Assembly (NCBI GenBank): GCA_964649265.1 | Contig: CAZYPB010000001.1 | Span: forward strand, 1-37,847 | DNA from: Candidatus Micrarchaeota archaeon | Lineage (GTDB): Archaea > Micrarchaeota > Micrarchaeia > Burarchaeales > JAKAKT01 | Reading direction: 5' to 3' | DNA length: 37,847 nt | Shown: positions 8,273 to 37,077 of the stretch, in pieces | How positions within the stretch are numbered: the stretch's first letter is position 1 | How the letters are laid out: each line of letters opens with the position of its first letter | Notes under the pieces: generated by a model | Told to the model about the DNA's origin: nothing | The model's input: only the letters and a program-made list of their open reading frames with translations | Database searches by the model: none | Program-made: the position numbers and the translations under genes

Positions 8273-8277
8273 AGTAT

Positions 8278-17598: not shown

Positions 17599-17612
17599 TT
17601 ATCTCTCTCCTG

Positions 17613-19811
17613 TTAGTTTATCGCTGCATAATAGACTTGCCCTAGAGACAGTCCCCCGTCTCCGCAAGGAACCCTCTCGTTTTGGTACACATTTATTCCT
17701 TTTTTTGAAAGGTATTTCTCTATTGTGGGCGGAATGTACCTGTTATACATCACTCCTCCGCTAAGGCAGACGTCATTGATCCCTTCCTTTTTACATGCCT
17801 GCTCCGCCATTTTGGCGAACCCAATTGCAATATAATCATGAACCATACGGGCCCCTTTCTTCTTGTTTTTTTCTTTAAGAAGCTTTACGAACAGTTTGGA
17901 TATCTCAAGAACATTAACTCCGCCAACATCAATCATGGTTGGCTTTGGATTTGTTGGTGCTGATGATGCAAATGACTCGAGTCTCAGTGCAGGCTCTCCT
18001 TCATATGTCCTTTCAGAGCATCCCTCAAACAAGTAGGAAGCAGCATCCAGGACCCTGCCACACGAGCTTGTTGAAACACAATTTATCCTTCTTTCATACT
18101 GTCTTCCAAGTATGGACACTGGCATCTTGAATTTCTTGAAGGCTTTTTCTGCCTCCTCTGCTGATAGTTGGTTCCTAAGTATTGAATAAAGGGATCTGTA
18201 AGGGAACCTAGCACCCATGTCTCCCCCTATGAGTTCGAAGTTCTCGATTCTGCCAAGTCTTACTCCATCAGAATGCATAAGCTCTCCACCCCAGGCAGTT
18301 CCATCTGATCCATACCCATATCCATCCAGTATGATCCCAAGTGCCTTTTTCAGCTTGTGCTCCGCCATAACTGAGTAAAGATGGGCAAGGTGGTGCTGAA
18401 CCATAACATGTGCAGCATCATAGCCCTCTGCAAACCGGGTTGTAAAGAAATCAGGGTGAAGATCTGAGACTATGACTTCCGGTTTACACCTGAGCCAATT
18501 GAGGGTTCGCATGAAATTACCCTTGAAATTATTAAATGAGTCATAGGTATCGACATCTCCCATGAATTGTGATAGATGAGCAACTCCTCCCCTGCTAACG
18601 CAGAAATTCGCATTGAGTTCAGCACCTACCCCAGCTATGCTTTTTTTGGTGTTTATCGGTATTGGTCCAGGTGCCAGGCCTCTTGAATACCTTAGAATAG
18701 TCATCCTGTCTCCTATGAATTTAACAACTGAGTCATCGCAATTGGAGACAATATCCCGGTCATGAAGAAGCACATAATCTGCAATATCCTTTAATTTTGA
18801 GAACGCTTCATCGTTTTTGGTTATTATTGGCTCACTCTGTTGGTTTCCACTTGTCATCACCATCAACTTAAGTCCTGAGAATTTGAAAAGAAGGTAATGT
18901 ATTGGAGCATATGGAAGCATTATCCCCACGCTATCCAATCCAGGAGCGATCCCATCTATCCTCTTCTTTTCTTTCAGTATGGCTATAGGTCTTCGTGCGG
19001 AGAGCATCTCTTCTTTTTCATAGATAGATATTCTCGCTACTTCCTGGGCTGCATTCATATCTCTCGCCATTATGGCGAATGCTTTGTTCTCCCGGTATTT
19101 TCCACTTCTTAGTCTCATAACTGAGTTATGTTTCCGTGCATTGCATGCAAGGTGGTAGCCGCCTATTCCCTTTATTGCTATTATTGCCCCGTTTTTCAAC
19201 TCCTTTGCAGCTCTCTCTATTGGGTTTGAAAGTGTTTTTCCTCCAAATGTCTGAAGCTTGTACTTAGGGCCACATACCCTGCATGAAATCGGTTGTGCAT
19301 GAAACCTTCTGTCATTTGGATCAAGGTATTCCTTTTTACAGTCAGAACACATATTGAAGGTGGCCATGCTTGTTTTATCTCGGTCATAGGGCGAGTCCTT
19401 TATTATTGTAAATCTCGGACCGCAGTCTGTGCAGTTTATGAAAGGATGTAGGTATCTCCTGTCCTTCTTGTTGTTGATCTCATTTACGCAAGCAGTGCAT
19501 ACGCAGACATCGGGAGATATCTCAGGAACATCAGTGGAAGATCTAGACATTATGATCCTGAACCCCTTTGGAGCCTTTGCATTGATTTTCTTAACATCTA
19601 CACTATCTATCTTGGACAATGGGGGAGAAGAGTTCTCTATGTACGATACAAGCTTCTGGAGCTGTTTATCGTTACAGTGCACAACAATACGGACTCCAAA
19701 TCCGACATTCTGGACAGTTCCTCGTATCCCTAGCATGTTTGCAGTTCTATACACGAAAGGCCTGAATCCTACTCCTTGAACTAGGCCTCTTATTTCTATT
19801 TCATGGGCCAT
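17613..19811 (-). CDS. hypF: Carbamoyltransferase HypF
   Basis: GLVQGVGFRPF acylphosphatase domain, two Zn fingers (FINCTDCGPRF, RRFHAQPISC), KGIGGYHL, QHHLAH and DGGLSLGQ. Confidence 0.97.
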   Translation of the reverse strand: MAHEIEIRGLVQGVGFRPFVYRTANMLGIRGTVQNVGFGVRIVVHCNDKQLQKLVSYIENSSPPLSKIDSVDVKKINAKAPKGFRIIMSRSSTDVPEISPDVCVCTACVNEINNKKDRRYLHPFINCTDCGPRFTIIKDSPYDRDKTSMATFNMCSDCKKEYLDPNDRRFHAQPISCRVCGPKYKLQTFGGKTLSNPIERAAKELKNGAIIAIKGIGGYHLACNARKHNSVMRLRSGKYRENKAFAIMARDMNAAQEVARISIYEKEEMLSARRPIAILKEKKRIDGIAPGLDSVGIMLPYAPIHYLLFKFSGLKLMVMTSGNQQSEPIITKNDEAFSKLKDIADYVLLHDRDIVSNCDDSVVKFIGDRMTILRYSRGLAPGPIPINTKKSIAGVGAELNANFCVSRGGVAHLSQFMGDVDTYDSFNNFKGNFMRTLNWLRCKPEVIVSDLHPDFFTTRFAEGYDAAHVMVQHHLAHLYSVMAEHKLKKALGIILDGYGYGSDGTAWGGELMHSDGVRLGRIENFELIGGDMGARFPYRSLYSILRNQLSAEEAEKAFKKFKMPVSILGRQYERRINCVSTSSCGRVLDAASYLFEGCSERTYEGEPALRLESFASSAPTNPKPTMIDVGGVNVLEISKLFVKLLKEKNKKKGARMVHDYIAIGFAKMAEQACKKEGINDVCLSGGVMYNRYIPPTIEKYLSKKGINVYQNERVPCGDGGLSLGQVYYAAIN

Positions 19812-19860
19812 ATGGTAGTAATTAATATTTTTGTAATAAAAACCTTTACCAGGCGATTAA

Positions 19861-20067
19861 ATGTGTCTAGCGTATCCTGGGAAAGTCATATCCGTGTCCG
19901 GTAAGCAGGGTATTGTTGATTTCGGTGGAATAAAGAAAAAGGTCCGTTTCGACCTGGTTAATGTGTCAAAAGGAGACTATGTAATAGTGCACACCGGATT
20001 CGCAATAGAGAGAGTAGACAAGAAGAGTGCTGAGATTACTCTCCGCATGCTCGAGGGGATTTATTGA
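19861..20067 (+). CDS. hypC: Hydrogenase maturation chaperone HypC
   Basis: MCLAYPG start and GDYVIVHTGFAI motif. Confidence 0.97.
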   Translation: MCLAYPGKVISVSGKQGIVDFGGIKKKVRFDLVNVSKGDYVIVHTGFAIERVDKKSAEITLRMLEGIY

Positions 20068-21125
20068 ATTTCAAAGATCCTGCGATAATAAGGAAACTTA
20101 AATCAAGCATAGATTCCCACGCAAAAGGACTCCCAGAAACAAATCTGATGGAGGTTTGCGGTTCACACACTCAAGCTGTTGAGAGATTCGGTTTAAGGAA
20201 ACTTCTCCCAAAAAACATAAATCTTGTGTCCGGTCCGGGCTGTCCCGTATGTATAACTCCCCCCTCAGTAATAGAATCAGCAATAAAGATATCTGAGCAA
20301 GGTTCAGTTATCACGACCTACGGGGATCTCGCCAGAGTTCCATGTTCATCAGGATCACTTATTGACGCAAAAGCAAAGGGCTCGGACGTAAGGGTGGTCT
20401 ATTCCATATCTGATGCGGGGAAGATTGCAACAGATAACCCAGATAAAACGGTAGTTCATGTGGCAATTGGTTTTGAGACAACAGCACAGACAACAGCAGC
20501 ATTCCTCCATAGTTCCCCACCTGAAAATCTGCTTATACTCAATGGCCATAGGTGGTTTCTGCCAGCAATGGAGTTCCTCCTAAAACAAGGAGATGTTAAA
20601 ATAGACGGATACATCTGTCCTGGCCACGTGAGCACTCTTGTTGGCTCGGACGCATACAAACCACTTAGTGAAAAGTACAGAATACCTCAGGTAATAGCTG
20701 GTTTCGAACCAGTTGATATAATGCTCTCAATACTCATGCTCATAAGAATGTTAAAGAGAAAGGAACCGGGCGTTCAAAACGAATACTTGCGAGTTGTAAA
20801 ACCAGGCGGAAATCCGATTGCAATGAAATTAATGAACAACGCATTCGGTCAAGAGAACGCTCTTTGGAGGGGCCTTGGAGTTATAGGTAAAACCGGAATG
20901 AAACTCAAGAAATTCCGTGAGCATGATGCATCCAAACAATTCAAAATAATAAGAGAATCGAAATCAGAAATGCCAAAAGGATGTAAATGTGCAGATGTTC
21001 TAAAAGGAAAATCAAAGCCATCAGAATGTCCTCTTTTTGGAAAGGGGTGCGATCCAGAAAAACCAATAGGACCATGTATGGTTTCAGTTGAAGGTTCATG
21101 CCATAACGCGCTCAAATACAGATAG
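20064..21125 (+). CDS. hypD: Hydrogenase maturation protein HypD
   Basis: MEVCGSHT, GPGCPVC, GFETT, PGHVS and GPCMVSVEGSC motifs. Confidence 0.97.
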   Translation: MNFKDPAIIRKLKSSIDSHAKGLPETNLMEVCGSHTQAVERFGLRKLLPKNINLVSGPGCPVCITPPSVIESAIKISEQGSVITTYGDLARVPCSSGSLIDAKAKGSDVRVVYSISDAGKIATDNPDKTVVHVAIGFETTAQTTAAFLHSSPPENLLILNGHRWFLPAMEFLLKQGDVKIDGYICPGHVSTLVGSDAYKPLSEKYRIPQVIAGFEPVDIMLSILMLIRMLKRKEPGVQNEYLRVVKPGGNPIAMKLMNNAFGQENALWRGLGVIGKTGMKLKKFREHDASKQFKIIRESKSEMPKGCKCADVLKGKSKPSECPLFGKGCDPEKPIGPCMVSVEGSCHNALKYR

Positions 21126-22942: not shown

Positions 22943-23024
22943 GGGTAAAGAATAAAGAAAAAAAGAGAAAAGGTTATTGGAAAACCATATTAATGAGCAT
23001 AAACGAAAAACTGACTGTGATATT

Positions 23025-24245
23025 ATGGCATTCTTGAAACTTGGAGAGAAACCAGGCCCGGAGAAGTATGTGCTGTGCACTTTCTATGTAGAAGCAGCTG
23101 ACATGAAAAAAGCAGGAGAGGAGCTTGGAGCAGAGAGCTCAATAGGCACATGGACAACCATTGCCACAATGAAGGATAGAGTGCTAAAGAACCTCGGAGC
23201 CAGGGTTTACCACATAAAAGGGAACATAATAAAGATCGCATACCCTGTTGATCTTTTCGAAGATAACAACATGCCCCAATTTCTTTCTGATGTCGCAGGA
23301 AACATATTTGGAATGAAAGGAGTAAAGAACATACGCTTCCTTGATTTTGAGCTACCGAAGAAATACATAAACTCATATCCCGGTCCGCTGTTCGGAAGGG
23401 ATAAAGTAAGAAAGGAGCTTGGGACGTATAACAACAGGAGACCACATATTGGGACAATTGTCAAACCAAAGGTCGGTCTGAACCCGAAGGAAACGGCAAA
23501 GGTAGCCCATGATGCATGGGTTGGCGGAATTGATTTTGTGAAAGATGATGAGAATCTAACAAGTCAAAAATTCTGTCCTTTTGAAAAGAGATTCGACCTT
23601 GTTTTCAAAGCAAAGGAGAAAGCAGAGGCAGAGACAGGGGAGAAGAAGATGTATGCTCCTAACATTACTGCTCCTGCAGATGTTATGCTTAAGAGAGCCG
23701 AGTATGTTAAGGAAAGAGGGAGCAATTGCATAATGATCGACATAATAACAGCAGGTTTCTCCGCACTTCAGTTCATACGATCACAGAACCTTGGAATGCT
23801 TATACATGCACACAGGGCTATGTACGCTGCGTTTGCGCGCTACCCCAGACATGGCATCGCCATGCTTCCAATAGCAAAGATGGCCAGACTATGCGGTGCA
23901 GATCAGTTGCACATAGGAACAGTTGTTGGAAAGATGGAGGGAAAAAAGGAAGAGGTTCTTGCAATACACAACAGCATAAATTCGAAATGGGGAAAACACA
24001 AACCGCTGTTCTCTGTTTGCTCTGGCGGGCTTGCACCTGAGAATGTCCCTGCGCTCATGAATATTTTCGGCAACGAGATAGTCATACAAGCAGGAGGAGG
24101 AGTCCATGGCCACCCTGACGGAACAAAAGCAGGTGCAACTGCCCTAAGGCAGGCTGTTGAGGCAACGATGCAGGGGATACCCCTAGGAACCTATGCCAAA
24201 ACACACCGGGAACTTGCTCGCTCTCCTAAAAAATGGAGATTATAG
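23025..24245 (+). CDS. rbcL: Ribulose-1,5-bisphosphate carboxylase, archaeal form III
   Basis: AESSIGTW, GNIFGMK, KPK, GIDFVKDDE, HAHRAM, QLHIGTVVGKMEG, SGG and QAGGGVHGHP motifs. Start at ATG 23025. Confidence 0.95.
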   Translation: MAFLKLGEKPGPEKYVLCTFYVEAADMKKAGEELGAESSIGTWTTIATMKDRVLKNLGARVYHIKGNIIKIAYPVDLFEDNNMPQFLSDVAGNIFGMKGVKNIRFLDFELPKKYINSYPGPLFGRDKVRKELGTYNNRRPHIGTIVKPKVGLNPKETAKVAHDAWVGGIDFVKDDENLTSQKFCPFEKRFDLVFKAKEKAEAETGEKKMYAPNITAPADVMLKRAEYVKERGSNCIMIDIITAGFSALQFIRSQNLGMLIHAHRAMYAAFARYPRHGIAMLPIAKMARLCGADQLHIGTVVGKMEGKKEEVLAIHNSINSKWGKHKPLFSVCSGGLAPENVPALMNIFGNEIVIQAGGGVHGHPDGTKAGATALRQAVEATMQGIPLGTYAKTHRELARSPKKWRL

Positions 24246-25169
24246 GGCTTTTACTTCAATGCCTATCTTGTTGAAGCTCTCGCCCTTCTTTTTTTCAGGG
24301 TAGTACACCTTGCTGTTGGTTGAGTATACGCCACCAACAACAGCATTCAACTTCCCATCCTTAACGTATTTCTCAACATCAAATTCTCCTTTTGCTAGTT
24401 CCTTATATTCCTCACTCTGCCTCTGCATGTGCATGCTCCATGTACCTGCATTTTGATCAAGGACAACAAGAACATTGAAGGTCTCACCAATATCAACAGA
24501 GTGTTCTCTTTCGTATTTCTGACCATCGGTGTCAAGGTATACTTTTCCCTCCTCAATCTCTGCTCTCAAATGCGGCAATCCTGTTGGAAACGGGTAGTTG
24601 TATGAACCTTTCTTTGTTTCCACCTGGTGTTTATGGTCATATAATGAGAACGCATAGGCGCGCTGCCTTGTTTCTGCCTTTCCTTCATCTGTGATTGTGC
24701 AGCTGAAGTTAACTGCAGTTACTCCCTCAGTTAATGCAATCTCCTGTTTCGGGGGAGGGAACGGCCCGGAATTTCCCACACCACTGCTTATCTCCTTTGG
24801 AACTTCACCAACAGCAACAAAAATTTCCTTTGCCATTCCAAGTGGAGCAGGTATTGAATCCACTGCTGAACTAGCACTGTCCGCATGGGTTGAGTCAACA
24901 TCTACATTAGTACTGTCATCCTTATTCAGAACAGGTATTGTATCAAGAACTGATTCCTCAGCAGTGCTGTCAGGTGCAACAGCATTAGAATCTGGAAGTG
25001 AGTCATAACCAAGTATATCCTTTAGTTTGTCCATGGTTTCTTGCGGCAAGCCTGCTGAAGAGAAAAGCCTGTCCCAATCAACCTTTGTTGTACCATCAGT
25101 TATATTTTCGAATCCTTTCTTCTTTTCGGATTTTGGTTCAATCCCCCTAACAAGCTGAAATACAAACAT
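24240..25169 (-). CDS. Orphan protein: MFVFQ leader, Asp/Ser-rich linker, beta-rich C-terminal domain shared with the adjacent 25213..28014 gene
   Basis: Long ORF with a GGTGG RBS before ATG 25169; paralogy of the C-terminal domain is visible by eye. Confidence 0.8.
   Translation of the reverse strand: MFVFQLVRGIEPKSEKKKGFENITDGTTKVDWDRLFSSAGLPQETMDKLKDILGYDSLPDSNAVAPDSTAEESVLDTIPVLNKDDSTNVDVDSTHADSASSAVDSIPAPLGMAKEIFVAVGEVPKEISSGVGNSGPFPPPKQEIALTEGVTAVNFSCTITDEGKAETRQRAYAFSLYDHKHQVETKKGSYNYPFPTGLPHLRAEIEEGKVYLDTDGQKYEREHSVDIGETFNVLVVLDQNAGTWSMHMQRQSEEYKELAKGEFDVEKYVKDGKLNAVVGGVYSTNSKVYYPEKKKGESFNKIGIEVKAL
24331..24490. repeat. 160-bp exact direct repeat, copy 1
   Basis: Identical to 25271..25430 (ccaccaacaacagc...gtctcaccaa); flanking bases differ. 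Confidence 0.95.
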
Positions 25170-25202
25170 ACGTACCACCCATTTTTATTTTGTGTTTTTA
25201 AG

Positions 25203-25211
25203 TTTAAGTAC
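25203..25211 (-). promoter_or_regulatory. GTACTTAAA box 33 nt upstream of the MFVFQ gene (putative promoter)
   Basis: Same 9-mer and same spacing as at 30764..30772. Confidence 0.6.
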
Positions 25212-25212
25212 T

Positions 25213-28014
25213 TCACTGCATCTCGATTCCCAACTTATGATATTTGCCGTTCCTGTTGGATGCATAGGCTCCACCAACAACAGCATTCAACTTCCCATCC
25301 TTAACGTATTTCTCAACATCAAATTCTCCTTTTGCTAGTTCCTTATATTCCTCACTCTGCCTCTGCATGTGCATGCTCCATGTACCTGCATTTTGATCAA
25401 GGACAACAAGAACATTGAAGGTCTCACCAACGTTCACGGTGTGTTTTCTTTCGTCTCCTTCATTTACTGTTTCAAGATATACCTTTCCACCTTCAATGTC
25501 CATCGCCCTTAGTAATGGGGTTCCTGGAGGAAACGGATACTCTCTACCTGTAGCCGAATGAAGGTTTTCGGGATCATGAAATGAGAACGGTAAAACGACC
25601 TGTCTGCTCGTTGCCCCTCCCTCATCTGTTATCCTGCATCCGAAGATTAGGGCGGTCTTCCCTTTGTTAAGAGTCAATTCACGGGGTTCGGGAAACGAAT
25701 CAGTATATGGGGATTTGTTTCTACTCTCCCCCTTTCCAAATCCCCTGGTAACCTGCTTTTCAACAGGTCCCCCAACAGCATCCTGGACAGTTTTGAGGTC
25801 CTCAACAGTAAGCCCTAGATTTGTCAGGTAAGGCAACATTGTTGGATTGTTTTCATTAAGTGTTTGTTCCATACTTGCTATTGCCTCCGCATGGCTATTC
25901 TGTAGGTACTTGTAATATTCAGAAGAAACAAATCTTTCCCTGGCTTCTGGAATAAGGTACTCAACAAAGTGCTCTTCAACATCCCTTAATCTGGAATTTC
26001 CGAACATCTCCAAAGCATTATGGTTCTGCCCAAGCGGTTTGGATAATGCATCTGCTAATTCAACGTACACTGCAGCTGCCATTGGATTGTATCTTCTTTT
26101 GATTTCACCTGTTATCTCTTCAAGTTCCTCAGTTGTTATCTCTCCAGCTGCGTGCTTTCTATTCGCTTCTGCATTCAATTCTTTACTTATATCCTCCACT
26201 TTAGAGACAAATGAGGAATCATTTACTCTGTCAACTGCCCTGCTTGCTATAGAGCTTATTGCATCCCTCTCCTGAGAATATCTTGATGGATCCAGGGTCT
26301 CAAGATCTATCTCAGAGTTGTACAGAGGCATGTCCTTTATGAACTCCCTTGCCTGCAGTTCTGTCTCCCGTTTAATCAGTCTGGTGAAGAATTCAGAACC
26401 CTTAAACATCTCCTGATAGTTCTTTCCTCTGTAATCCAAGAGAAGGTTTGAAGTGAATTTTCCCTCTATATCAAAAGAACTCATGTCTGAAAACATTCCG
26501 TACTCTCTGTGTTCAACCTGAATCTCTGCAATTGAGTGCAGTAGTGCAGAAGCAACCGGATCGTAATATTTCCCATAAACTGCTTCTGCCTGGGGGTCCG
26601 GATTCTGTTTTTTCATCTCAGCATACTGTGCCTTAACTGCCCTTATAAAGGATGGGTCATCTAGTTTTTTACTAACTCTTTCAACCAATTCATTGAACCT
26701 CGTTGTTCCGCCAAAGAAAGTGTCCTCATTTCCTTTAATAATTGCCTGAAGAGAATTCTGTCCCCAAATATCCGCTATAACTCCACGTACACTGTGAACT
26801 GTTTGATTACTGGCCATATCCTTATTTTTCTTATCTGCTTCTTCCCAATAGTCCTTGATTATTTTGTCGAATTTACTTTCATAGTTTTGGAAAAGTGGAA
26901 GTACTGCCTGTTGTCTTCCACTGGACTCAACCTGCCCTACAGATGATCGTTTGTCTAAAAGAATTACTGCAACAAGCGCAGCGCCCATTATCAGTAGTTT
27001 CTTGTAATTCCCCTTGAACCATGTGCTTATTCTGTTTCCCACAGTTCTTTGTGCCATTATTCTCTCTCCCAATCCCTTTGTTTTCGGAAGAGCGTCGTCT
27101 ATAGTTTCTACAGGTATCATTCCCTCCTTAGCAAGTCCGTTTGCAACCTCTGCATCAAGTTTTGCAATAACCTCAGCAACAGTTGCTCCCTCCCTAGTTA
27201 AAGCAGTGCGTATTATTCTCCCAACCCTTTCTTGGAAAAGTTTTTCAGGAACCTTATCAACAAGTGCTGTTCTAAGGTGTTCATGAACTATGTTTTTTAT
27301 GTCATCAATGAATGCTCCACTTAAGCTTATTCCTGAAAGCCTTCCCTTCATCCCAGTCAGTGCACCTCTAAGGCGCGTTTCATTGTAGATCTGCGCTAAT
27401 TCAGGGTCCTTCTTTATTGTCCTCTCCAGATCATCCACAAATGCTTCAGCATCAAACTTGTTGCCTTTTCCTTTCTTTTTGTATACTTCTCCGATGAATT
27501 CTGAATCCGTTTTTGCATCGTCTGTACTTCTAAGCATATCGTCAAGTTTGCTGCCGACCATTGGGGACCAGTTTCCAGAAGGTTTTTTCCAACTCTCAGA
27601 TACTATTTCTTGCAACCCTTCAAAGGCTTTGGCCTGTTTCTTTGCATTCGCTAAAAGCCTATTGAATGCTTTCATAATGCTGTCAACCTGATGTTCTGTA
27701 ACCTTCCCAGTTTTCACAGCGTTTTTATCTATGATCAACTCTACAAAATGGGCAACCTTTCCTTCCTGTTTGGAGGTCCACATAAGAAGGAATGCTCCAC
27801 CAACATCAACTCCGACTTCTAACTTACCTGCATCTATCCCGAGGTCCCTTGCCATGTCTGTAACTGTGTTACTCACTGCATGTGCCATACCGAACTTACC
27901 AAACTTACCTGGGACTAAAGTTCTGAATGCCATGTACTCTGCATAATCTATTTTGTACTGATGTCTATCCAGTTCTTTTCCCATGATTGGAACATTTCCT
28001 GAAAGATTTCCCAT
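25213..28014 (-). CDS. Large orphan protein with one TM segment, two tandem helical repeats and a beta-rich C-terminal domain
   Basis: ORF of about 930 aa with a GGGGG RBS before ATG 28014 and a TM segment LLIMGAALVAVILL. Confidence 0.8.
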   Translation of the reverse strand: MGNLSGNVPIMGKELDRHQYKIDYAEYMAFRTLVPGKFGKFGMAHAVSNTVTDMARDLGIDAGKLEVGVDVGGAFLLMWTSKQEGKVAHFVELIIDKNAVKTGKVTEHQVDSIMKAFNRLLANAKKQAKAFEGLQEIVSESWKKPSGNWSPMVGSKLDDMLRSTDDAKTDSEFIGEVYKKKGKGNKFDAEAFVDDLERTIKKDPELAQIYNETRLRGALTGMKGRLSGISLSGAFIDDIKNIVHEHLRTALVDKVPEKLFQERVGRIIRTALTREGATVAEVIAKLDAEVANGLAKEGMIPVETIDDALPKTKGLGERIMAQRTVGNRISTWFKGNYKKLLIMGAALVAVILLDKRSSVGQVESSGRQQAVLPLFQNYESKFDKIIKDYWEEADKKNKDMASNQTVHSVRGVIADIWGQNSLQAIIKGNEDTFFGGTTRFNELVERVSKKLDDPSFIRAVKAQYAEMKKQNPDPQAEAVYGKYYDPVASALLHSIAEIQVEHREYGMFSDMSSFDIEGKFTSNLLLDYRGKNYQEMFKGSEFFTRLIKRETELQAREFIKDMPLYNSEIDLETLDPSRYSQERDAISSIASRAVDRVNDSSFVSKVEDISKELNAEANRKHAAGEITTEELEEITGEIKRRYNPMAAAVYVELADALSKPLGQNHNALEMFGNSRLRDVEEHFVEYLIPEARERFVSSEYYKYLQNSHAEAIASMEQTLNENNPTMLPYLTNLGLTVEDLKTVQDAVGGPVEKQVTRGFGKGESRNKSPYTDSFPEPRELTLNKGKTALIFGCRITDEGGATSRQVVLPFSFHDPENLHSATGREYPFPPGTPLLRAMDIEGGKVYLETVNEGDERKHTVNVGETFNVLVVLDQNAGTWSMHMQRQSEEYKELAKGEFDVEKYVKDGKLNAVVGGAYASNRNGKYHKLGIEMQ
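25271..25430. repeat. 160-bp exact direct repeat, copy 2
   Basis: Identical to 24331..24490, offset 940 bp. Confidence 0.95.
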
Positions 28015-28039
28015 CAAATCAACCCCCAATAATCGCCAT

Positions 28040-30730
28040 CTATATCTCAGGTCTCAGAATTCCCACGGCAGGAGGAATTCCCCTGCTCTTCGCTGTTTTC
28101 AAACCAGTGTTATCTCCTAACCACTTCAATGAAAAACATCCGTCCTTATACGATTCAACTATTATATTTGTGTCAAATTTAATTTGCTGGCCTGTTTTTG
28201 TAAACATCTCCTCTTCCTTTCTTTTCGCAAGTGCCCCTGCAACTGATGGAAGATCGGATTTAACTCCCCGGTATCTCTTGGAAAAGAATTCTATTATCCG
28301 GTCTGGGGAATCAGCAGGACCTCCTTTCCTTAGGTATAACTCCACTGTATCATCAACACTCATTCCCAAAGCACTTGCAATTCTGTTGAACTTTCCTTCT
28401 TCCATAAGCTCTGAAACGGTCTCTGCCCTGTATGCAATCAGTCTTTTTGTCACTCCCTGGACAACCCGATCATCCGGAATATCCTCAAGCCCATAAGCGT
28501 ATGCAATGCTCTTGGCAGTCTCTTGGGTTAACTCTTCCCCAAAGCAATAAGTGGATGATGAAATATCCTCGTATGCTTTTTTCACAGCGCCCTCATTGCC
28601 GTATATCTTTTTCATATGTGCCATGTAATCTGCCGTCATCTCCTGTGCTCCTGCAAATTCCTGCGCATAGGAATAATCCAAGTATGGCTGGGCTTTTCTT
28701 TTGTCATGTCTCTCCCCTTGGTTGTGAGTACTTAGATAAAGTCCTGCAACAAGGCCCCCGTTTTCCATCCAGAATAATTTGTTAAATCCAGCCGAAGGAG
28801 CAAGCAGCTTCACATTTACCGAATGTCCTGCTTCAATCCATTTAGACAGTCTAACAGACCTTGTCCGTGTTCCCTTTCCTATAACTCCTTTATAGCAGAA
28901 ATCAGCGAATTTAGCTAGTTCTGGATTCTTGTTAAGCAGTCTTGATATGGCTATTTTCCCTGGTTTGGATCTTGCAGATGCAAGCCCGAACGCAACTGTG
29001 AATACTGCAGCCCAAGCAGCTGCCTCTGTTTTCTCATTATCTGAACCAAATGCTTCGTTTGCTTTATGGGCATCATAAATGGATTTTATTGCCTGCCATC
29101 CCCAATATGCGACAATGGGCCATTTTCCAAGCATAAACAGATACCAATGTTCTTCTATAAGGGAATTGGCGGCCTTCATGAAATTCTCATCAACTGAAAG
29201 AAGGGACTCTATTTTTCCATTATGTTCGTAGTAAAACGTACCTATCTCTTTCATTGTGCCGAAATAAACTCCGTTCTCAACCATCTCCTGCATTGCGTTT
29301 TGAACACTCTTTCCCCTGCCTCTTATCCCAAGGTAAGGGTCTATTGCACTGTATTCTCCGTCTTCCTTTGAGTATGCAATAACCACGACATCGTATTCAC
29401 TCTTTCTCTCCTGTCCTCCAGAGTTCACAAAAACATAGTTTTTTGTTTGTATGATTGAGCAGTTCTCAGGCAAAAGCCCTATCAATTTTGATTTTGCCTC
29501 CTCAGTAAGAAAAGAAGGAATTCCATCGGTTGTTGTGAAATATTCTCTACCACTTTCATCCTGGAAATCAGCTATATTCTGAGAATTAAAGCCCATGAAT
29601 TGTTCATGCCTTTGGTAAGCATCCCTATACATCAGATCCTGCGAATAGAATCTAAACAAGAATGAGTTTTTATTTCTGATTAGGTCAAGTACCTCGCTAT
29701 CAGCCCCAATGCTTCTTAATAGGAAATCACTATGTGCGAGGTCCCTGGACTCCTCTATTGATTCTCTTGCCTCATCAGCGAGTATACTGTTTCTCTCGAA
29801 TATCCGGTTTTTTATTTCACCATGGAACAAAGGAATCATGCCCTCAGGAATATAGTTTCTTATTTTTTCCATATTTCCCGGGATATAGCGATATAAATCA
29901 AAGATATTAACAGAACTTCCAATACTCCCCGGCTCACCAGATGTTTGTGCTGTTGTCTTAGATTGTTCTTGTGCAAAAAGTGTTTCAACAATACTTTCTT
30001 CTGTTATTAGGACTATTCCCTTTTCCATAAGGTGCTCTCTAAGTGCTTCAATCTTCCTCTCTTCATCAAAATTATATTCTAGGGCCCTAAGCCCAGTGGC
30101 ATGGCTGGTGAATGGGTTCACCTCCTGGTCAGTGTTTTGTCTTACCAGTACTCTAGGCTTACCAATAAGAACAACATCACCTGTTTCACTGTTCAATCCT
30201 GTGTTAGCCCATTCAAACCAGTATCTAACCTCATACCCCTGTGAATCATAGAATGTTCTGCCAGTCATCTCATTCCAAGCTGCTTTTATTTTTGATTCCA
30301 TGCCCTTGAAATTTAGATCTGCCATCTCAACAAGATGTCTGCTTGTCTTATCATCATAATATTCTCTGCCAATGGCTATCTCATCTGGAACTATTGCACT
30401 TATAACTGTTCTAAGTTCCTTATTCTTAGACTGGGATCGTGGTTTCCATTGCTTTGTTTTTGGTCCCTCAACAACAACTTCTCTTCTTGCTCCACCATGG
30501 CATTTCATTCCTGAACTCACTCTAAGTGGCCAATGGTTCTCTCCATTCAAATAGGACCTAACTGCTTTATCGATATCTTCCTGTTGGTAACCGTCCAAAT
30601 TCCGTGTTTTAACAACAACTTTTCCAGCCATCCCTTTGTCCGCTAACCTGTTTCCCGAAGCCTTGTGAGATGGAAGACAAGTTGGTTTTTTCTTTCCTTT
30701 TTTTTCAGCCTGTACCTGGAAGATAAACAC
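28040..30730 (-). CDS. Large orphan protein with MFIFQ leader and internal hydrophobic segments
   Basis: 896-aa ORF with a GGTGAGG RBS before GTG 30730. Hydrophobic stretches: WYLFMLGKWPIVAYWGW and AAAWAAVFTVAFGLA. Confidence 0.8.
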   Translation of the reverse strand: MFIFQVQAEKKGKKKPTCLPSHKASGNRLADKGMAGKVVVKTRNLDGYQQEDIDKAVRSYLNGENHWPLRVSSGMKCHGGARREVVVEGPKTKQWKPRSQSKNKELRTVISAIVPDEIAIGREYYDDKTSRHLVEMADLNFKGMESKIKAAWNEMTGRTFYDSQGYEVRYWFEWANTGLNSETGDVVLIGKPRVLVRQNTDQEVNPFTSHATGLRALEYNFDEERKIEALREHLMEKGIVLITEESIVETLFAQEQSKTTAQTSGEPGSIGSSVNIFDLYRYIPGNMEKIRNYIPEGMIPLFHGEIKNRIFERNSILADEARESIEESRDLAHSDFLLRSIGADSEVLDLIRNKNSFLFRFYSQDLMYRDAYQRHEQFMGFNSQNIADFQDESGREYFTTTDGIPSFLTEEAKSKLIGLLPENCSIIQTKNYVFVNSGGQERKSEYDVVVIAYSKEDGEYSAIDPYLGIRGRGKSVQNAMQEMVENGVYFGTMKEIGTFYYEHNGKIESLLSVDENFMKAANSLIEEHWYLFMLGKWPIVAYWGWQAIKSIYDAHKANEAFGSDNEKTEAAAWAAVFTVAFGLASARSKPGKIAISRLLNKNPELAKFADFCYKGVIGKGTRTRSVRLSKWIEAGHSVNVKLLAPSAGFNKLFWMENGGLVAGLYLSTHNQGERHDKRKAQPYLDYSYAQEFAGAQEMTADYMAHMKKIYGNEGAVKKAYEDISSSTYCFGEELTQETAKSIAYAYGLEDIPDDRVVQGVTKRLIAYRAETVSELMEEGKFNRIASALGMSVDDTVELYLRKGGPADSPDRIIEFFSKRYRGVKSDLPSVAGALAKRKEEEMFTKTGQQIKFDTNIIVESYKDGCFSLKWLGDNTGLKTAKSRGIPPAVGILRPEI

Positions 30731-30763
30731 TACCTCACCACGTATATACTATGGATTTGGGCC

Positions 30764-30772
30764 TTTAAGTAC
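30764..30772 (-). promoter_or_regulatory. GTACTTAAA box 33 nt upstream of the MFIFQ gene (putative promoter)
   Basis: Same 9-mer and same spacing as at 25203..25211. Confidence 0.6.
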
Positions 30773-30773
30773 A

Positions 30774-31985
30774 TTAGCTTTCCCTCAGTAATCGCATTAT
30801 CTGCCCAACACTTGGCCTCTTTCCATACATAAGAAGCCCGATTCTAAAGACCTTTGCTGAAAGCCACATGAATAGCAAGACAAATGAAATAAGCACAGCG
30901 ATGCTTGCACCTATCTCAAGTGCGGGCAGGTCAGTTAATGACAGTCTTATTAACATTACAATTGGTGCAGTTAATGGAAAGAATGAAAGTCCCTGGGCAA
31001 GAATTGAATTAGGTTCTTTCACTATTACTGCTGAGAACATTAGTGGAAGTGCTGCAATGAACCCAAACATTCCAGCAACCTGCTGCCCTTCCCTCTGCGT
31101 TGTTGAGATTGCCCCAACACCTGCATAAACACTTGCGAATATCAGATATCCCAGTACAAAGTAAACGACGGAGAGTGCTATTGTAATATATGGTACCTCA
31201 AATGCCCCAAGAAGAGGCATGCTATCCTGCATAACTGAATATGCAGAGGTGAGAACAGTGATCCCGGCAATTCCCCATATGAGCACCTGGGTTAATCCAA
31301 CTGCCCCAAGGCCGATTATCTTTCCAGCCATAAGCTCCAGTGGGGAAACCGAAGAAAGCAGTATCTCTATCACCCGGTTCTCCTTTTCAGAAACAATGCT
31401 CTGCAAAAGGAAGCCAGAGGTCATGAATGCGGCCATTACAAAAACAAAAGCAAATGCATATGGGATTATCAGTTTCAAGAGATTCGGCTGTGTTTCAGCC
31501 CCAGTCTCATCCAGAAAAACAGGAACAACTATTGCAGGGGCAATTGCCCTAAGATAAATATTGCCTTCAACATGATCTGAAAGAATGGTCTTTCTAAGAG
31601 AGTCCTTCAGCCATTCATCCGAAAATCCGCTTGCAATGTTCTTTGAATCAGTATAAACCTGAACTTGTCCGAACATCATATAATTATCCGGTATAACAAA
31701 ATAATGGGAAATCTTTCCTTTCAGAAGTGCCTGTTTTGCCTGTTCTTCATCTTTGTATTCAGTTAGGTTTATTGATTCCGGAGAACCCAGGTTAGTGAAA
31801 AAACCGGTCTTATCAACGTACCCAATATCGCCCCGCATTGCCCCCTCCGTCAGATCCCCCATAACAACAGTCTGTAAGAATACAACGCCAAGCATAAGTG
31901 CGGGTAATCCCAGAGTTATCAACAGGAATTCCTTTCTCTTTACATTCACAAGGTATTCATGCAATGCTATTTTCAGGGCGTTCAT
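30774..31985 (-). CDS. ABC-2 type exporter permease (NatB/YhaP-like)
   Basis: One N-terminal TM, an extracellular loop, SIVSEKENRVIEILLSSV..ELMAGKIIG, then further TMs. Confidence 0.92.
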   Translation of the reverse strand: MNALKIALHEYLVNVKRKEFLLITLGLPALMLGVVFLQTVVMGDLTEGAMRGDIGYVDKTGFFTNLGSPESINLTEYKDEEQAKQALLKGKISHYFVIPDNYMMFGQVQVYTDSKNIASGFSDEWLKDSLRKTILSDHVEGNIYLRAIAPAIVVPVFLDETGAETQPNLLKLIIPYAFAFVFVMAAFMTSGFLLQSIVSEKENRVIEILLSSVSPLELMAGKIIGLGAVGLTQVLIWGIAGITVLTSAYSVMQDSMPLLGAFEVPYITIALSVVYFVLGYLIFASVYAGVGAISTTQREGQQVAGMFGFIAALPLMFSAVIVKEPNSILAQGLSFFPLTAPIVMLIRLSLTDLPALEIGASIAVLISFVLLFMWLSAKVFRIGLLMYGKRPSVGQIMRLLRES

Positions 31986-32881
31986 CTGCTCTCCTCCTGT
32001 ACCAGGCTTATGAATATCTCATTGAGTGAAGGCCCACCAACTTCAAACCTGCTTATACCCAATCCCTTTCTTACGAGTGTTTTAAGGACATTCCCCGGAA
32101 CAGTTGCCTTAGCCAATTTTAGTTCTGCGTATTTCCCATAATCCTCTATTTTCTCCACCCCAGATATTTTTGCAGGCAGTTTTCCCTGATACTCAACTGT
32201 TATCGAATTAGCACCATGTTCAGCTTTCACTTCCCCTATCCTGCCATAAAGAACAACAGAACCTTTGTTTACCATCAATACTCTGTCGCACATCTTCTCA
32301 ACCTGGTCCATTTGGTGGGTTGAAAGAACAATTGTTTTTCCACTCTCCTTTAATTCAAGAATAAGATCCTTTATTAGTTTGGAATTAACCGGGTCTAAGC
32401 CTGAGAAAGGCTCATCAAGAACAATAAGTGACGGGTTATGTAACAATGAGACAATGAACTGTATTTTCTGCGCCATTCCTTTTGATAGCTCGTTTATCTT
32501 CTTTTCAGAATGTGCTTCCATACCTATCTTCTTTAACCACTTAAGAGCGCTTTTCCTAGCATCCTCTTTACTCATCCCCTTAAGAGTTCCAAAATAGACA
32601 AGTGAATCTATTACCTTAAGTCCCCTGTAAAGCCCCCTTTCTTCAGGAAGATATCCTATTTGTCTTTTCAGCTCTTCATCTAACCTCTTGTTGAAAAGAT
32701 TGACTTCCCCCTTATCTGCTTTTATTATGTCCATTATTATCCTAAGAAGCGTTGTCTTGCCTGCACCATTCGGTCCAAGTATGCCAAATACCTCACCATC
32801 ATCTATTGAAAACGAGACTCCTGAAAGCACTATCTGGGAGTCAAATGCTTTGTAAATACCGGATACAGAGAGAAGTTGCAC
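31982..32881 (-). CDS. ABC transporter ATP-binding protein (NatA/YhaQ-like)
   Basis: GPNGAGKTT, GYLPEERGLY, LSKGMAQK, LDEPFSGLDP and STH motifs. GTG start at 32881 after GGTGA (32890 is an alternative). Confidence 0.95.
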   Translation of the reverse strand: MQLLSVSGIYKAFDSQIVLSGVSFSIDDGEVFGILGPNGAGKTTLLRIIMDIIKADKGEVNLFNKRLDEELKRQIGYLPEERGLYRGLKVIDSLVYFGTLKGMSKEDARKSALKWLKKIGMEAHSEKKINELSKGMAQKIQFIVSLLHNPSLIVLDEPFSGLDPVNSKLIKDLILELKESGKTIVLSTHQMDQVEKMCDRVLMVNKGSVVLYGRIGEVKAEHGANSITVEYQGKLPAKISGVEKIEDYGKYAELKLAKATVPGNVLKTLVRKGLGISRFEVGGPSLNEIFISLVQEESR

Positions 32882-32886
32882 AACGT

Positions 32887-33606
32887 TCACCCTGTTTCAC
32901 TGATACACGCTTCAAGAAGATCCTGGTCTGTTATATGCTGGCAGAGAGATTCATCCAAACTAAGCACTGCAAGCTGATAATAACAGTCCTCCCTAAGATA
33001 TCCAGTTATTGAATCACAAACTACTATTTCCATTGTGGACATTGCATATTGGAGAAGGCACGAGTTTTTAGAATCAGTTGAGTCTGATTCACAGATATTT
33101 GGGTTTCCGTTCTCTATTGCAAAATAGGAAAGACAGTTCCCTGCGAATTCTGAGTTCATTATGTTCTCACAGACATTCTCTTTCTTTTTTAGAGAATAAA
33201 GCAAAAAGCATCTGTCACTGCTTCCATCGACAGTATCATTTGCAGATAAAACTGCTTGGAAGCATACCTGGTAATTTGATTGTTCTATAGCTTGTCCTGA
33301 GAAACACTCCCCCCTCAAATCAGGAGTGGTTATCTTTTCGCAACCCCCTTTCTCTGCAAATCTAGAATAGCACTTATCCATATAGTACGGGTTCTCTATC
33401 CTTTTGCAGATATCCCTGTTGTTCTCCCTTACAGCGAATTCTGTAAAGCACGTATGTTGTTCTATACCATTAAGCGTAATGCAATTATCTGCACCAGTTG
33501 TAATCTGTATTCCTATTACTGATGCATCAGGTATAAGATAAAGAGCAGCAAGAAGAAGGATCATCATAAACACAGCAAATGGCAGTGTTTTCTTTACAGT
33601 TGTCAT
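32887..33606 (-). CDS. Membrane-anchored/secreted protein with tandem Cys-pair helical repeats
   Basis: N-terminal hydrophobic helix, then about 7-8 repeats of the form C-xx-I-x(6-8)-C-(Y/F/L)-xxx-A. Confidence 0.8.
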   Translation of the reverse strand: MTTVKKTLPFAVFMMILLLAALYLIPDASVIGIQITTGADNCITLNGIEQHTCFTEFAVRENNRDICKRIENPYYMDKCYSRFAEKGGCEKITTPDLRGECFSGQAIEQSNYQVCFQAVLSANDTVDGSSDRCFLLYSLKKKENVCENIMNSEFAGNCLSYFAIENGNPNICESDSTDSKNSCLLQYAMSTMEIVVCDSITGYLREDCYYQLAVLSLDESLCQHITDQDLLEACISETG

Positions 33607-33673
33607 GTTCCTCAAACATATTGAATTTCCAATGTTTATATAGGTTGGGTTGTCATTTTCTATGGGTGGTGTA

Positions 33674-34204
33674 ATGGCCGGACTAAAGGGCAAAACCGTT
33701 GTTGTTCTTGTTGATGATGGTTATCAGGACCTTGAGGTTTGGTACCCATTCCTTAGGCTCAAGGAAGAGGGAGCAGATGTCTACTCTGTTGCCCCTGAGA
33801 AGAGAAAATACATTGGAAAGAATGGATATCCCATCGATGTTGATTTTTCAATTGATGAAGCACCTGATGCGGATTGTGTGGTCATTCCCGGAGGATGGGC
33901 ACCTGACCATTTAAGGAGAAACAAGATAGTTGTTTCTTATGTAAGGGAGGCAAATGAAAAAGACAAACTTATCGCATCAATATGTCACGGGGGGTCTCTT
34001 CTTGTTTCAGCAGGAACATTGAAAGGAAAAAAGGCAACAAGTTACGATGCCATAAAGGATGACATGATAAATTCTGGAGCGGAGTGGATTGATGAGGAAG
34101 TGGTTGTAGATGGGAATCTTATAACCTCGAGAAAACCCGCGGACCTCCCTGTTTTCTGCAGAAAAATAATCAGATTTCTCTCGGAAAATGAAAAAAGTCG
34201 ATGA
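33674..34204 (+). CDS. pfpI: PfpI/DJ-1 family (type 1 glutamine-amidotransferase-like) protease/deglycase
   Basis: GYQDLE, IPGGWAPDHLR, ICHG nucleophile elbow and VVVDGNLITSRKPADL. Confidence 0.93.
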   Translation: MAGLKGKTVVVLVDDGYQDLEVWYPFLRLKEEGADVYSVAPEKRKYIGKNGYPIDVDFSIDEAPDADCVVIPGGWAPDHLRRNKIVVSYVREANEKDKLIASICHGGSLLVSAGTLKGKKATSYDAIKDDMINSGAEWIDEEVVVDGNLITSRKPADLPVFCRKIIRFLSENEKSR

Positions 34205-34229: not shown

Positions 34230-34279
34230 CCGGTTAAGCGCTAATGTCAGATATAAAAACTCAACTGGAGGTAGATCTG

Positions 34280-34642
34280 ATGATGAGACGGTTTTGGTTG
34301 ACCAGGACGTCCGTTATTTTGGCGTTAGTGTTAATGAGCAACCTGGTAATTGCCGGTCCAAGCCCAATGGTTGTGCAGCTCACTGCTATCTGCGCAAACA
34401 TAAAGGCAGTGGTACCGATAGTAGCGTTGCTTATGTTTATCCTTGCCGGAGGTATCTATGCTATTGGTCAGGTTCTAGGAGCTGAGACCAGGGCAAGAGC
34501 ATCCGTCTGGGCGACAGCGATGTTGGTAGGAGGAGTTATTGGACTCATCATAGCAGCATCTGCACAGTATCTCGTAGAGATATTCGCTCAGTTTGCCATA
34601 GGAGGAACGTCCATTATAAGCGGATCAGGAATAACCTGCTAA
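34280..34642 (+). CDS. VirB2/TrbC-like pilin precursor
   Basis: Signal-like N-terminus, then two hydrophobic helices separated by a short charged loop (GQVLGAETRARASVW); lies upstream of a VirB4-like ATPase. Confidence 0.7.
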   Translation: MMRRFWLTRTSVILALVLMSNLVIAGPSPMVVQLTAICANIKAVVPIVALLMFILAGGIYAIGQVLGAETRARASVWATAMLVGGVIGLIIAASAQYLVEIFAQFAIGGTSIISGSGITC

Positions 34643-34680
34643 ACGGGTTTCCTCCCGTTCATTTTATTTTTTTGTCTTTT
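34642..34680 (+). terminator. Hairpin (AACGGG-tttcct-CCCGTT) plus long T-tract after the pilin-like gene
   Basis: Inverted repeat at 34642-34647 / 34654-34659, followed by a T-rich run. Confidence 0.65.
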
Positions 34681-34728
34681 CCACTACTTTTTTAAATAGA
34701 GACTTCAATAACCATTACAGGTGATCTG

Positions 34729-37068: not shown

Positions 37069-37077
37069 GGTTAGTTT

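Follow-up and report, generated by a model that had tools for sequence, protein, structure and literature searches.

Type III secretion and flagellar N-terminal signals are uncleaved, lie at the extreme N-terminus of unrelated proteins free of Sec signals, and have no fixed sequence. Type III substrates are often large, and they include translocators with one or two central hydrophobic segments. To our knowledge, archaea have no type III system; the archaeal Sec, Tat and class III signals, also N-terminal, define the destination of a protein. The phage T4 capsid-targeting sequence and the leaders of ribosomal protein L27 and phage 80-alpha, the latter removed by Prp protease, are cleaved at a defined site and belong to virions or ribosomes, where these short conserved N-terminal peptides, carried by unrelated proteins, act as an address or assembly checkpoint. 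The ways in which DPANN archaea attach to their hosts and exploit them are still poorly understood, and the majority of candidate interaction proteins are without recognisable features. Here we describe a pentapeptide, MFxFQ, found at the start of proteins that make up no fewer than 43 groups without mutual relationship, nearly all of them unannotatable, in several Micrarchaeota families. Most likely it is an N-terminal sorting tag peculiar to this lineage, with export as its probable purpose.

The window, by which we mean the whole analysed stretch of 37,847 nt, contains three fast-evolving genes, A (896 aa), B (938 aa) and C (309 aa), all on the minus strand and downstream of an ABC-2 transporter. 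The features of this region are as follows:

32887-33693, minus strand: 268-aa membrane-anchored Cys-rich protein, upstream of A and co-oriented
31982-32890, minus strand: ABC ATPase (Pfam ABC_tran, 2.7e-28)
30774-31985, minus strand: ABC-2 permease (Pfam ABC2_membrane_3, 4.2e-47)
30764-30772, minus strand: GTACTTAAA box of A, 1 base past the permease stop and 33 nt before the GTG
30716-30739, minus strand: start region of A, with the Shine-Dalgarno sequence GGTGAGG (30733-30739), the GTG (30728-30730) and the M-F-I-F-Q codons (30716-30730)
28040-30730, minus strand: gene A, 896 aa, GTG start, MFIFQVQAEKKGKKK, tagged
25213-28029, minus strand: gene B, 938 aa from TTG, untagged, one membrane helix
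25203-25211, minus strand: GTACTTAAA box of C, 1 base past the B stop
25155-25179, minus strand: start region of C, with the Shine-Dalgarno sequence GGTGG (25175-25179), the ATG (25167-25169) and the M-F-V-F-Q codons
24240-25169, minus strand: gene C, 309 aa, ATG start, MFVFQLVRGIEPKSEKKKG, tagged

In the protein database B has 933 aa and starts at the ATG at 28014. Gene C overlaps the end of a convergent RuBisCO gene by 6 nt, and the 268-aa Cys-rich protein has one N-terminal hydrophobic helix and no family match. The locus is surrounded by housekeeping genes (RuBisCO, hydrogenase maturation, CysRS, RFC), the order of which is kept across species. In the sister species the same ABC-2 permease lies directly 5' of a tagged C-like gene, the ortholog of C in genome G001 (417+ aa, MFVFQIAAKVEDPG). 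We considered this transporter as the reader of the tag and rejected it, the adjacency being found only in this genus and absent from the other tagged loci inspected.

A and C have a complete 5' module in common, in which the box GTACTTAAA is followed by a ribosome-binding site and this by the start M-F-[IV]-F-Q. A reading of the DNA made from the sequence alone (the sequence-only reading) had pointed to a shared MFxFQ start and a shared promoter box, and both were recovered. The boxes lie directly past the stop of the preceding gene, 33-34 nt ahead of each tagged start, and GTACTTAAA occurs twice in the window against 0.24 expected and four times in the 1.24-Mb genome. From its position, we infer that the box is a TATA-like promoter element; a bacterial-type promoter and terminator scan, not applicable to archaea, performed no better than on shuffles. 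The spacing from the Shine-Dalgarno sequence is the usual one (GGTG, 5 nt and GTG in A; GGTG, 6 nt and ATG in C), and that of A recurs in tagged genes of other genomes. At the orthologous junction of the sister species, the permease stop is followed by GTACTTAAA, 31 nt with a GGTGA ribosome-binding site, and ATG TTT GTT TTC CAG. This spacing, together with conservation of the peptide by synonymous codons, argues that the starts are correctly placed and not elsewhere.

At their other ends, B and C have a tail of about 190 aa in common (residues 754-938 of B aligned with 121-307 of C; 55% identity in 197 columns, E 3e-61), so that C, which begins with the module of A and ends with the tail of B, does resemble the miniature of the two larger genes that the sequence-only reading had seen in it:

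25216-25770, minus strand: tail domain of B, residues 754-938
24243-24809, minus strand: tail domain of C, residues 121-309, a concanavalin-A-like beta-sandwich in the model
25271-25430, minus strand: 160-nt block, B copy, 100% identical to 24331-24490
24331-24490, minus strand: 160-nt block, C copy, identical to the B copy and read as a gene-conversion tract

In the sister species, the tails of B and C are nearly identical to each other and 46-48% identical to those described here; this likeness within each species and divergence between them reveals concerted evolution, with gene conversion homogenising the copies in each genome. An independent assembly of the single DNA run containing the stretch spans the junction between B and C and, as one would expect of a repeat, breaks at both copies of the 160-nt block. 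The tail matched no sequence family in Pfam or NCBIfam. AlphaFold2 modelled the C tail, from four sequences, as an all-beta domain (pLDDT 60.6, pTM 0.63). Foldseek gave the legume lectin 2gmp_A as the best match of this model (E 3.8e-5, TM 0.45), and VIA-align the PL7 alginate lyase 1uai_A (Z 10.7, 141 residues), with GH43 C-terminal domains, lectins, galectins and SPRY domains next in rank. Both programs thus ranked the concanavalin-A-like superfamily first, for a model with a pLDDT of 60.6, and lectins are mixed with polysaccharide lyases among the top matches. We assign the tail to the concanavalin-A-like beta-sandwich fold with moderate confidence.

Matches of A and B were confined to close relatives. 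A has no Pfam, NCBIfam or PHROGs family, and NCBIfam returned nothing for C either. Only its own family yielded homologues of A (G001, 44% identity; G005 and G002, weak), its first 360 residues matched nothing in the five relatives searched, and a word-indexed homology search with A and C retrieved the queries themselves only. Neither BLAST of A-D (D being a further tagged protein) against all ORFs of the fetched loci nor comparison of B and C with the syntenic G002 genes by hhalign and BLAST extended the matches beyond the genus or family. An exhaustive search with a HMMER profile of B returned four proteins, all of this genus, and matches of B and of the tail are confined to this genus among 1.84 billion representative proteins; a sub-threshold NCBIfam match of B to the CRISPR protein Csx13 was disregarded. 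AlphaFold2 of A from a four-sequence alignment reached a pLDDT of 36.5, so no fold was read from it. B has a clear membrane helix at about residues 340-362 (about 26944-27012; KD 1.59), and A a weaker hydrophobic segment near residue 568 (KD 1.33); the internal helices proposed earlier for both large proteins therefore hold firmly for B only. The N-terminal flank of the B helix is the more positive one in both species which, by the positive-inside rule, suggests an N-in, tail-out topology.

The motif extends well beyond these two genes. Within this genome, F[LIV]FQ occurs 10 times in 1407 ORFs (392,050 residues), and three of the ten occurrences start within the first five residues of the ORFs as called, against about 0.1 expected from the seven internal cases. 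The third tagged gene (435+ aa, contig C96) is unrelated to A and C, starts MLFLFQTASKAMGGKK behind the ribosome-binding site GGAGAGGTGAT, and has no GTACTTAAA box. Across 401 Micrarchaeota genomes, we searched for the pattern GGTG-N2-9-RTG-N0-3-TTYNTNTTYCAR, with the reversed pattern as control. It matched in 62 genomes, with about 107 matches against about 25 for the control, as counted by hand from the tables. The pattern was present in 18 of the 30 genomes of family f11 and in 12 of the 15 of its genus g35, with up to seven per genome, and the tag opened an ORF of at least 100 aa in 19 of 30 returned loci and in 18 of 20 further fetched sites. Families in which the tag is present include f1, f2, f11, f22 and f25. 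In the two largest families sampled, f13 and f17, it was rare or not enriched (6/94 and 3/83 genomes), so the tag is not a necessity throughout the phylum; a scan of two genomes that dropped the ribosome-site requirement gave 0 matches against 4 in the control (G050) and 1 against 2 (G069).

From these matches, we compiled a catalogue of 52 distinct tagged proteins of 52-1429 aa, drawn from Micrarchaeota only and with a pattern that demands the motif, so that its size measures recurrence and not the true number of tagged proteins per genome. With the tag removed, the 52 fall into 43 groups unlinked by BLAST, and 51 of them have no Pfam family at E <= 0.001, whereas 23 of the 33 other ORFs of the window do. 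The codons of the tag vary (TTT/TTC, CAA/CAG and many codons for L, I and V), and selection therefore acts on the peptide rather than on a nucleotide signal. The tag is also portable, since members of the A family carry it in this genome and lack it in G005 (MLRW.../MGNG...) and G002 ((GTG)GANFGGN), where the gene after the A homologue starts MVFLFQ. Elsewhere, tagged genes form tandem arrays of large genes, and behind one such array lies a gene with a CARDB domain (Pfam, 1.9e-22), which is typical of cell-surface proteins. A second common start, MG-N (seen in B, its ortholog in G001, the G005 homologue of A and one g35 gene), was dropped because many ordinary genes of this genome begin MG... 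Taken together, the scan of relatives, the synonymous codons and the unlinked groups bear out this much of the earlier proposal: MFxFQ with its charged patch behaves like a dedicated tag, and a portable one. Literature searches on the motif and on Micrarchaeota or DPANN signals and surface proteins found no description of it; in a preprint on the Micrarchaeota S-layer (bioRxiv 10.1101/2021.04.28.441871), the question discussed is one of an ordinary signal peptide or a membrane anchor.

No classical signal peptide was recognized in the tag, in agreement with the sequence-only reading. Up to two residues are tolerated between the Met and the first Phe, and the Q is followed by a small or hydrophobic residue and then by Lys/Glu-rich positions from +4 to +12. 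Against a Sec-type (class I) signal, only F-[LIV]-F is hydrophobic and mean hydropathy is negative from +2 after Q; an N-terminal hydrophobic segment was found only in two nested entries of one 86-aa ORF (L015) among 59 catalogue entries. For Tat, neither A nor C has an RR among its first 24 residues, and in 47 aligned carriers Arg dominates no position after the tag; for class III (prepilin/archaellin) signals, no hydrophobic stretch follows the tag. A phage or mobile element likewise finds no match here: PHROGs returned nothing for 14 proteins (seven tagged, namely A, C, D and four of g35, plus B and neighbours), and the context is housekeeping, syntenic and chromosomal. The ESM Atlas gave no usable match for A or for a 358-aa tagged g35 protein.

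We propose that A-B-C is a hypervariable, lineage-restricted chromosomal locus of a micrarchaeon, one of the DPANN archaea, built from exchangeable modules. The first module, documented above, consists of the TATA-like box, the Shine-Dalgarno sequence and M-F-[LIV]-F-Q, a portable protein-level tag with the mixed Lys/Glu stretch behind it. A sorting step particular to the lineage would read this tag, most likely for Sec-independent export or for delivery to a structure at the surface or in contact with the host. The second module, likewise documented, is the tail, which may bind a ligand, probably a glycan, outside the cell, displayed by B through its membrane helix and by C through the tag, and rapid divergence with recombination between constant ends would then yield a diversified display. 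We advance this account tentatively, its chances as a whole, with the sorting role of the tag and the roles of the tail included, falling a little short of even. A bolder version, in which M-F-[LIV]-F-Q is the address label of a novel Sec-independent Micrarchaeota delivery route that carries a large, fast-evolving and by other means unrecognisable repertoire (some proteins above 1000 aa, some with lectin-like modules) to the surface or the host, seems to us possible but doubtful.

The composition of the tag bears on a different role, as a peripheral membrane-binding or assembly motif of proteins that stay in the cytoplasm, on the inner face of the membrane, and are not exported. A hydrophobic group beside a basic patch is an established way of attaching proteins to membranes; here, the two Phe would dip into the lipid interface and the Lys would add charge attraction, or else a short strand would dock on a cytoplasmic scaffold. 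Such a role would suit a motif with four hydrophobic residues only, followed by frequent Lys at +4, +5 and +9, on proteins most of which are hydrophilic and have no membrane helix, and it would agree with the lack of an export machine linked to the tagged genes. However, Glu is about as frequent as Lys in the patch, leaving its net charge near zero, in B, the prediction places the tail that it has in common with C outside the cell, and both the concanavalin-A-like fold and the CARDB neighbour point outward. We therefore judge this alternative unlikely.

The invariance of the pentapeptide at the extreme N-terminus, with the 0-2 residues tolerated after Met, would also be expected of a short leader that is cleaved, for example after Gln, or of a stability or translation-start signal, which would control maturation, turnover or early elongation rather than location. 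Parallels are known: ribosomal protein L27 and certain phage capsid proteins lose short N-terminal leaders with aromatic ends, a number of viral cysteine proteases cleave after ...L-F-Q, and one macrolide-resistance leader peptide begins MLVFQ. Yet the residue that follows Q is highly variable (T, L, V, A, G, I, N, M and others), the tagged genes have no linked protease, and a general translation enhancer should also be found on annotated and housekeeping genes, in contrast to the almost complete lack of Pfam families among the carriers. A leader or stability signal is thus a rather improbable reading of the tag.

The sequence-only reading had further suggested that these proteins are substrates of a VirB4-like machine. 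A VirB4/CedB-like membrane ATPase operon does lie at 34244-37811, 3.5 kb from the cluster; its ATPase (35530-37068; Pfam AAA_10, DUF87 and TraG P-loop) is flanked by small membrane proteins, and all families with tagged genes also have this ATPase. However, it is present in 342 of the 401 Micrarchaeota genomes, typically about 60-90% identical, including 87 of 94 in f13 and 78 of 83 in f17, where the tag is not enriched, and belongs to the near-universal gene core of the phylum, not to a mobile element. The tag pattern (62 of 401 genomes) is concentrated in a few families, and no linkage was seen outside the window: in four tag-rich genomes (G275, G227, G202 and G324), the 40 kb on either side of the ATPase contain none of the 23 tagged genes, and in G001, G002, G003 and G014 the two are on different contigs. 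Moreover, the known relatives, namely Ced, Ted and type IV secretion, move DNA or use C-terminal signals. The proposal is not sustained by these data, and we consider it very unlikely. It is scarcely credible that the shared start came about merely by chance or through local duplication of the 5' end of a gene and has no independent function: the A/C pair did arise by duplication or recombination, as the whole 5' module, non-coding box included, is common to both, but the third carrier has no such box, dozens of unrelated carriers in other families vary in synonymous codons, and the N-terminal cases in this genome exceed chance expectation.

With a sorting tag as our preferred reading, a five-residue label that marks about 1-7 unannotatable proteins per genome would turn part of the dark matter of these genomes into a defined, testable set. 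If the delivery route exists, the hidden host-interaction proteins of host-dependent archaea could be predicted from sequence alone. The locus is itself a clear, small example of module exchange and gene conversion generating variation in an archaeal symbiont.

Compared with type III and flagellar signals, the tag is similar in its extreme N-terminal position and in its occurrence on unrelated, often large proteins with no Sec signal; it differs in being an almost invariant pentapeptide and in having no linked machine. With the T4 capsid-targeting sequence and the L27/80-alpha leaders it has in common a short conserved N-terminal peptide on unrelated proteins, but the tagged genes are chromosomal and syntenic, with no viral context (0 PHROGs matches for the 14 proteins). 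Archaeal Sec, Tat and class III signals are equally N-terminal; unlike them, the tag has no hydrophobic core of 7-15 residues, no twin arginine and no [KR]-[GA] site with a hydrophobic stretch. The neighbouring operon resembles the Ced/Ted DNA import and VirB4 systems in that its ATPase matches the CedB, CedD and VirB4 models, with all scores far below the family cutoffs. The modelled tail shares its fold with the concanavalin-A-like superfamily (VIA-align Z scores from 10.7 to 8.5 across 120-167 residues; Foldseek E values as low as 3.8e-5), which includes legume lectins, galectins, PL7 alginate lyases, GH43 C-terminal domains and the Methanocaldococcus jannaschii legume-lectin domain 7exo; it differs in matching no family at the sequence level, and the confidence of the model is moderate. 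Finally, polymorphic toxin and cassette systems combine a constant N-terminal trafficking domain with a variable C-terminal toxin and a downstream immunity gene. In contrast, no toxin or immunity family was detected in A-C or the tagged set, and here it is the C-terminal domain that is constant and the body that varies, the constant parts of the locus being its promoter-plus-tag end and its tail, lectin-like in the model.

The MFxFQ tag (N-terminal M-F-[LIV]-F-Q) is a portable, peptide-level element found at the start of unrelated, unannotatable proteins, and its spread is lineage-restricted. Within the window it opens two of three consecutive minus-strand genes, A and C, which together with B have no family in Pfam, NCBIfam or PHROGs. 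The gene order on this strand is a 268-aa membrane-anchored Cys-rich protein, an ABC ATPase, an ABC-2 permease, and then A, B and C:

28040-30730, minus strand: gene A, 896 aa, GTG start, reading MFIFQVQAEKKGKKK
25213-28029, minus strand: gene B, 938 aa (933 aa if begun at the ATG chosen in the protein database)
24240-25169, minus strand: gene C, 309 aa, starting MFVFQLVRGIEPKSEKKKG
22977-24245, plus strand: form-III-like RuBisCO large subunit, convergent with gene C (6-nt overlap)
32887-33693, minus strand: 268-aa protein of no known family, with a Cys-rich body behind a single N-terminal membrane helix; first gene of the ABC-2 transporter operon running into A
2-3040, plus strand: ORF of more than 1000 aa, 5′ end open, with a choice-of-anchor X domain match (7.3e-8); probably a large surface protein

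The three shared features proposed by the sequence-only reading were all recovered. The starts of A and C each lie 5–6 nt downstream of a GGTG ribosome-binding site, and a TATA-like nonamer, GTACTTAAA, present in only four copies in the whole genome, stands directly 3′ of the preceding gene's stop codon, 33–34 nt ahead of both starts. The C-terminal tails of B and C (~190 aa) are 55% identical over 197 columns (E 3e-61), with 160 nt that match completely between the two copies (24331-24490 and 25271-25430). The one DNA run containing the stretch was also assembled independently; that assembly breaks at both repeat copies and bridges the B–C junction, which argues that the arrangement is not an obvious assembly artefact. 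Internal hydrophobic helices were ascribed to both large proteins; a single membrane helix is clear in B, and the hydrophobic segment of A is weaker.

The source genome (1.24 Mb, 101 contigs, 87% complete) contributes the window as an entire 37.8-kb contig, where ordinary chromosomal genes surround A–B–C: an Mbh/Mrp-type membrane hydrogenase cluster, HypA, HypD, HypF, an AIRS-domain (AIR-synthase-related) protein, the form-III-like RuBisCO and DJ-1/PfpI. The [NiFe] hydrogenase cluster (7943-21125; Mnh E, G and B, NuoK/L/B/C/D/H-like subunits and a ferredoxin subunit, with HypA, HypF and HypD) looks complete, in a ~1.2-Mb genome of a supposedly host-dependent archaeon. The same RuBisCO adjoins the variable locus in the sister species G001 and in the relative G002, and thus marks one conserved border of a hypervariable region.

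With a profile of B, an exhaustive HMMER search through 1.84 billion representative proteins returned four, all from this genus. Among the 401 genomes of the phylum, the tail was found only in two, the source genome and G001. Relatives of A were found only within its own family (44% identity in G001, weak in G005 and G002). B and its ortholog in G001 share just 32% identity. These genes are fast-evolving.

Comparison with G001 revealed how the locus diversifies. G001 has a C-like gene whose tail is ~97% identical to that of G001 B, an estimate taken over roughly 430 aligned nt; the match is complete at the contig ends, at which the assembly is broken. Both tails share only 46–48% protein identity with the source-genome C tail used as alignment reference. 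Being alike inside G001 and diverged between species, the two tails are kept alike within a genome by gene conversion. The G001 permease junction runs from the ABC-2 permease through GTACTTAAA and 31 nt including a GGTGA ribosome-binding site to ATG TTT GTT TTC CAG, and opens the C-like gene, with the A–B pair on another contig. In the source genome the same junction opens A, not C, and the 5′ region of A is closer to the G001 junction than to C of its own genome. Gene bodies are thus exchanged between constant ends, namely the putative promoter plus tag and the tail. In addition, at the syntenic G002 locus beside RuBisCO the A homologue begins differently and the next gene, unrelated and 707 aa long, starts MVFLFQ, and the G005 A homologue has yet another start, indicating that the tag moves between protein families.

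F[LIV]FQ occurs 10 times in the 1407 ORFs of the source genome, and three occurrences begin within the first five residues as called (~0.1 expected). The third carrier, on contig C96, is unrelated to A–C and has no GTACTTAAA box. At order level, an initial scan of 29 genomes added carriers from four families. Across 401 genomes of the phylum, a stricter pattern (ribosome site, start codon, 0 or 1 extra codon, then F-x-F-Q) matched 62 genomes, with ~107 matches against ~25 for the reversed control (hand-counted); the 401-genome tallies of tag and ATPase cover two genomes (G216, G061) that are flagged as unpublished, and no claim depends on either individually. The tag is therefore not confined to A and C. 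Matches are concentrated in family f11 (18/30 genomes) and its genus g35 (12/15), with up to seven per genome, and the pattern also occurs in f1 (3/4) and f2 (2/2); the two largest families, f13 (6/94) and f17 (3/83), are tag-poor. Dropping the ribosome-site requirement gave no excess over control in one f13 and one f17 genome, but an excess in the g35 genomes G047 (7 versus 2) and G324 (5 versus 2), with none in a third g35 genome, G046 (1 versus 3). An ORF of at least 100 aa begins at the tag in 19 of 30 loci returned and at 18 of 20 further fetched sites.

We collected 52 distinct carriers (52–1429 aa), which, with the tag removed, fall into 43 groups without a BLAST link at E ≤ 1e-3. Of these carriers, 51 lack a Pfam family, the remaining one having TPR repeats, compared with 23 of 33 other window ORFs that have one. 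Among the 47 carriers of at least 100 aa, the prefix before the tag F is M (27), MV (7), MM (5), ML (3) or another short sequence (5), and the middle position holds L (23), V (15) or I (9); Q is followed by a small or hydrophobic residue and then a hydrophilic stretch rich in Lys and Glu. Synonymous codon sites vary freely, placing the constraint on the peptide. Carriers are often found among very large genes arrayed in tandem, and one such array is followed by a CARDB-domain protein.

In g35, such arrays (L102, G275:C20; L104, G227:C14; L105, G202:C8) consist of tandem 800–1400-aa orphan genes, including tagged ones, and adjoin a cysteinyl-tRNA synthetase gene; tagged genes per genome seem to increase with genome size (0–1 at 0.8 Mb, 6–7 at 1.2–1.7 Mb). 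Several large untagged genes after tagged ones start MG-N (MGNLSGN in B, MGGCMGNG in G001 B), which also occurs inside the G005 A homologue (MGNGVTK) and a g35 gene of at least 1268 aa (MGNLISVK); sites are window 28014 (the B start), L010:1677, L113:2594 and L105:16197. As many ordinary genes also start MG.., this start may be no more than chance.

With all four available sequences as input, AlphaFold2 modelled the tail as all-beta at moderate confidence (pLDDT 60.6, pTM 0.63). Foldseek ranked legume lectins first (2gmp_A, E 3.8e-5, TM 0.45). A second, independent all-against-representatives alignment (Z 10.7–8.5 over 120–167 residues) matched PL7 and PL18 alginate lyases, GH43 C-terminal domains, legume lectins, galectins, SPRY domains and a phage baseplate protein, all of which we take to be concanavalin-A-like sandwiches, the likely fold of the tail.

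We tentatively favour a role of the tag in export or delivery to the surface, in which a sorting step would read it. The more positive flank of the B helix is N-terminal in both species, which would place the tail outside, and C has the same tail without an anchor or Sec signal. Moreover, the fold of the tail is typical of extracellular binding proteins, as is the CARDB neighbour, and extreme divergence with recombination tends to mark symbiont contact proteins. The tag lacks the defining features of Sec, Tat and prepilin signals. A cytoplasmic membrane-binding or assembly motif seems unlikely, and a cleaved leader or a stability or translation signal somewhat more so.

The proposal that tagged proteins are specifically cargo of the VirB4-like machine nearby is improbable. 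This ATPase (35530-37068), flanked by small membrane proteins (operon 34244-37811), matches HerA, VirB4 and CedB-type models, all below cutoffs. It is a core gene, present in 342 of 401 genomes at mostly 60–90% identity, including 87/94 in f13 and 78/83 in f17, and its distribution does not track the tag. Few genes of the phylum are conserved as strongly, which is unusual for a conjugation-type ATPase. None of 23 tagged genes in G275, G227, G202 and G324 lies within 40 kb of it, and tagged genes and ATPase are on different contigs in G001, G002, G003 and G014. Its closeness to A–B–C thus looks coincidental, and nothing in the comparison supports a functional link. Mere duplication of the shared start is contradicted by the unrelated carriers across the phylum and by the boxless third carrier, and can hardly be the explanation.

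As an N-terminal address tag, the motif would make a hidden protein set testable. We found no description of MFxFQ in the available portions of the literature searched, one preprint included. In its way of working, the tag would most resemble the N-terminal signals of type III substrates and, likewise, the capsid-targeting sequence of T4, a short shared leader.
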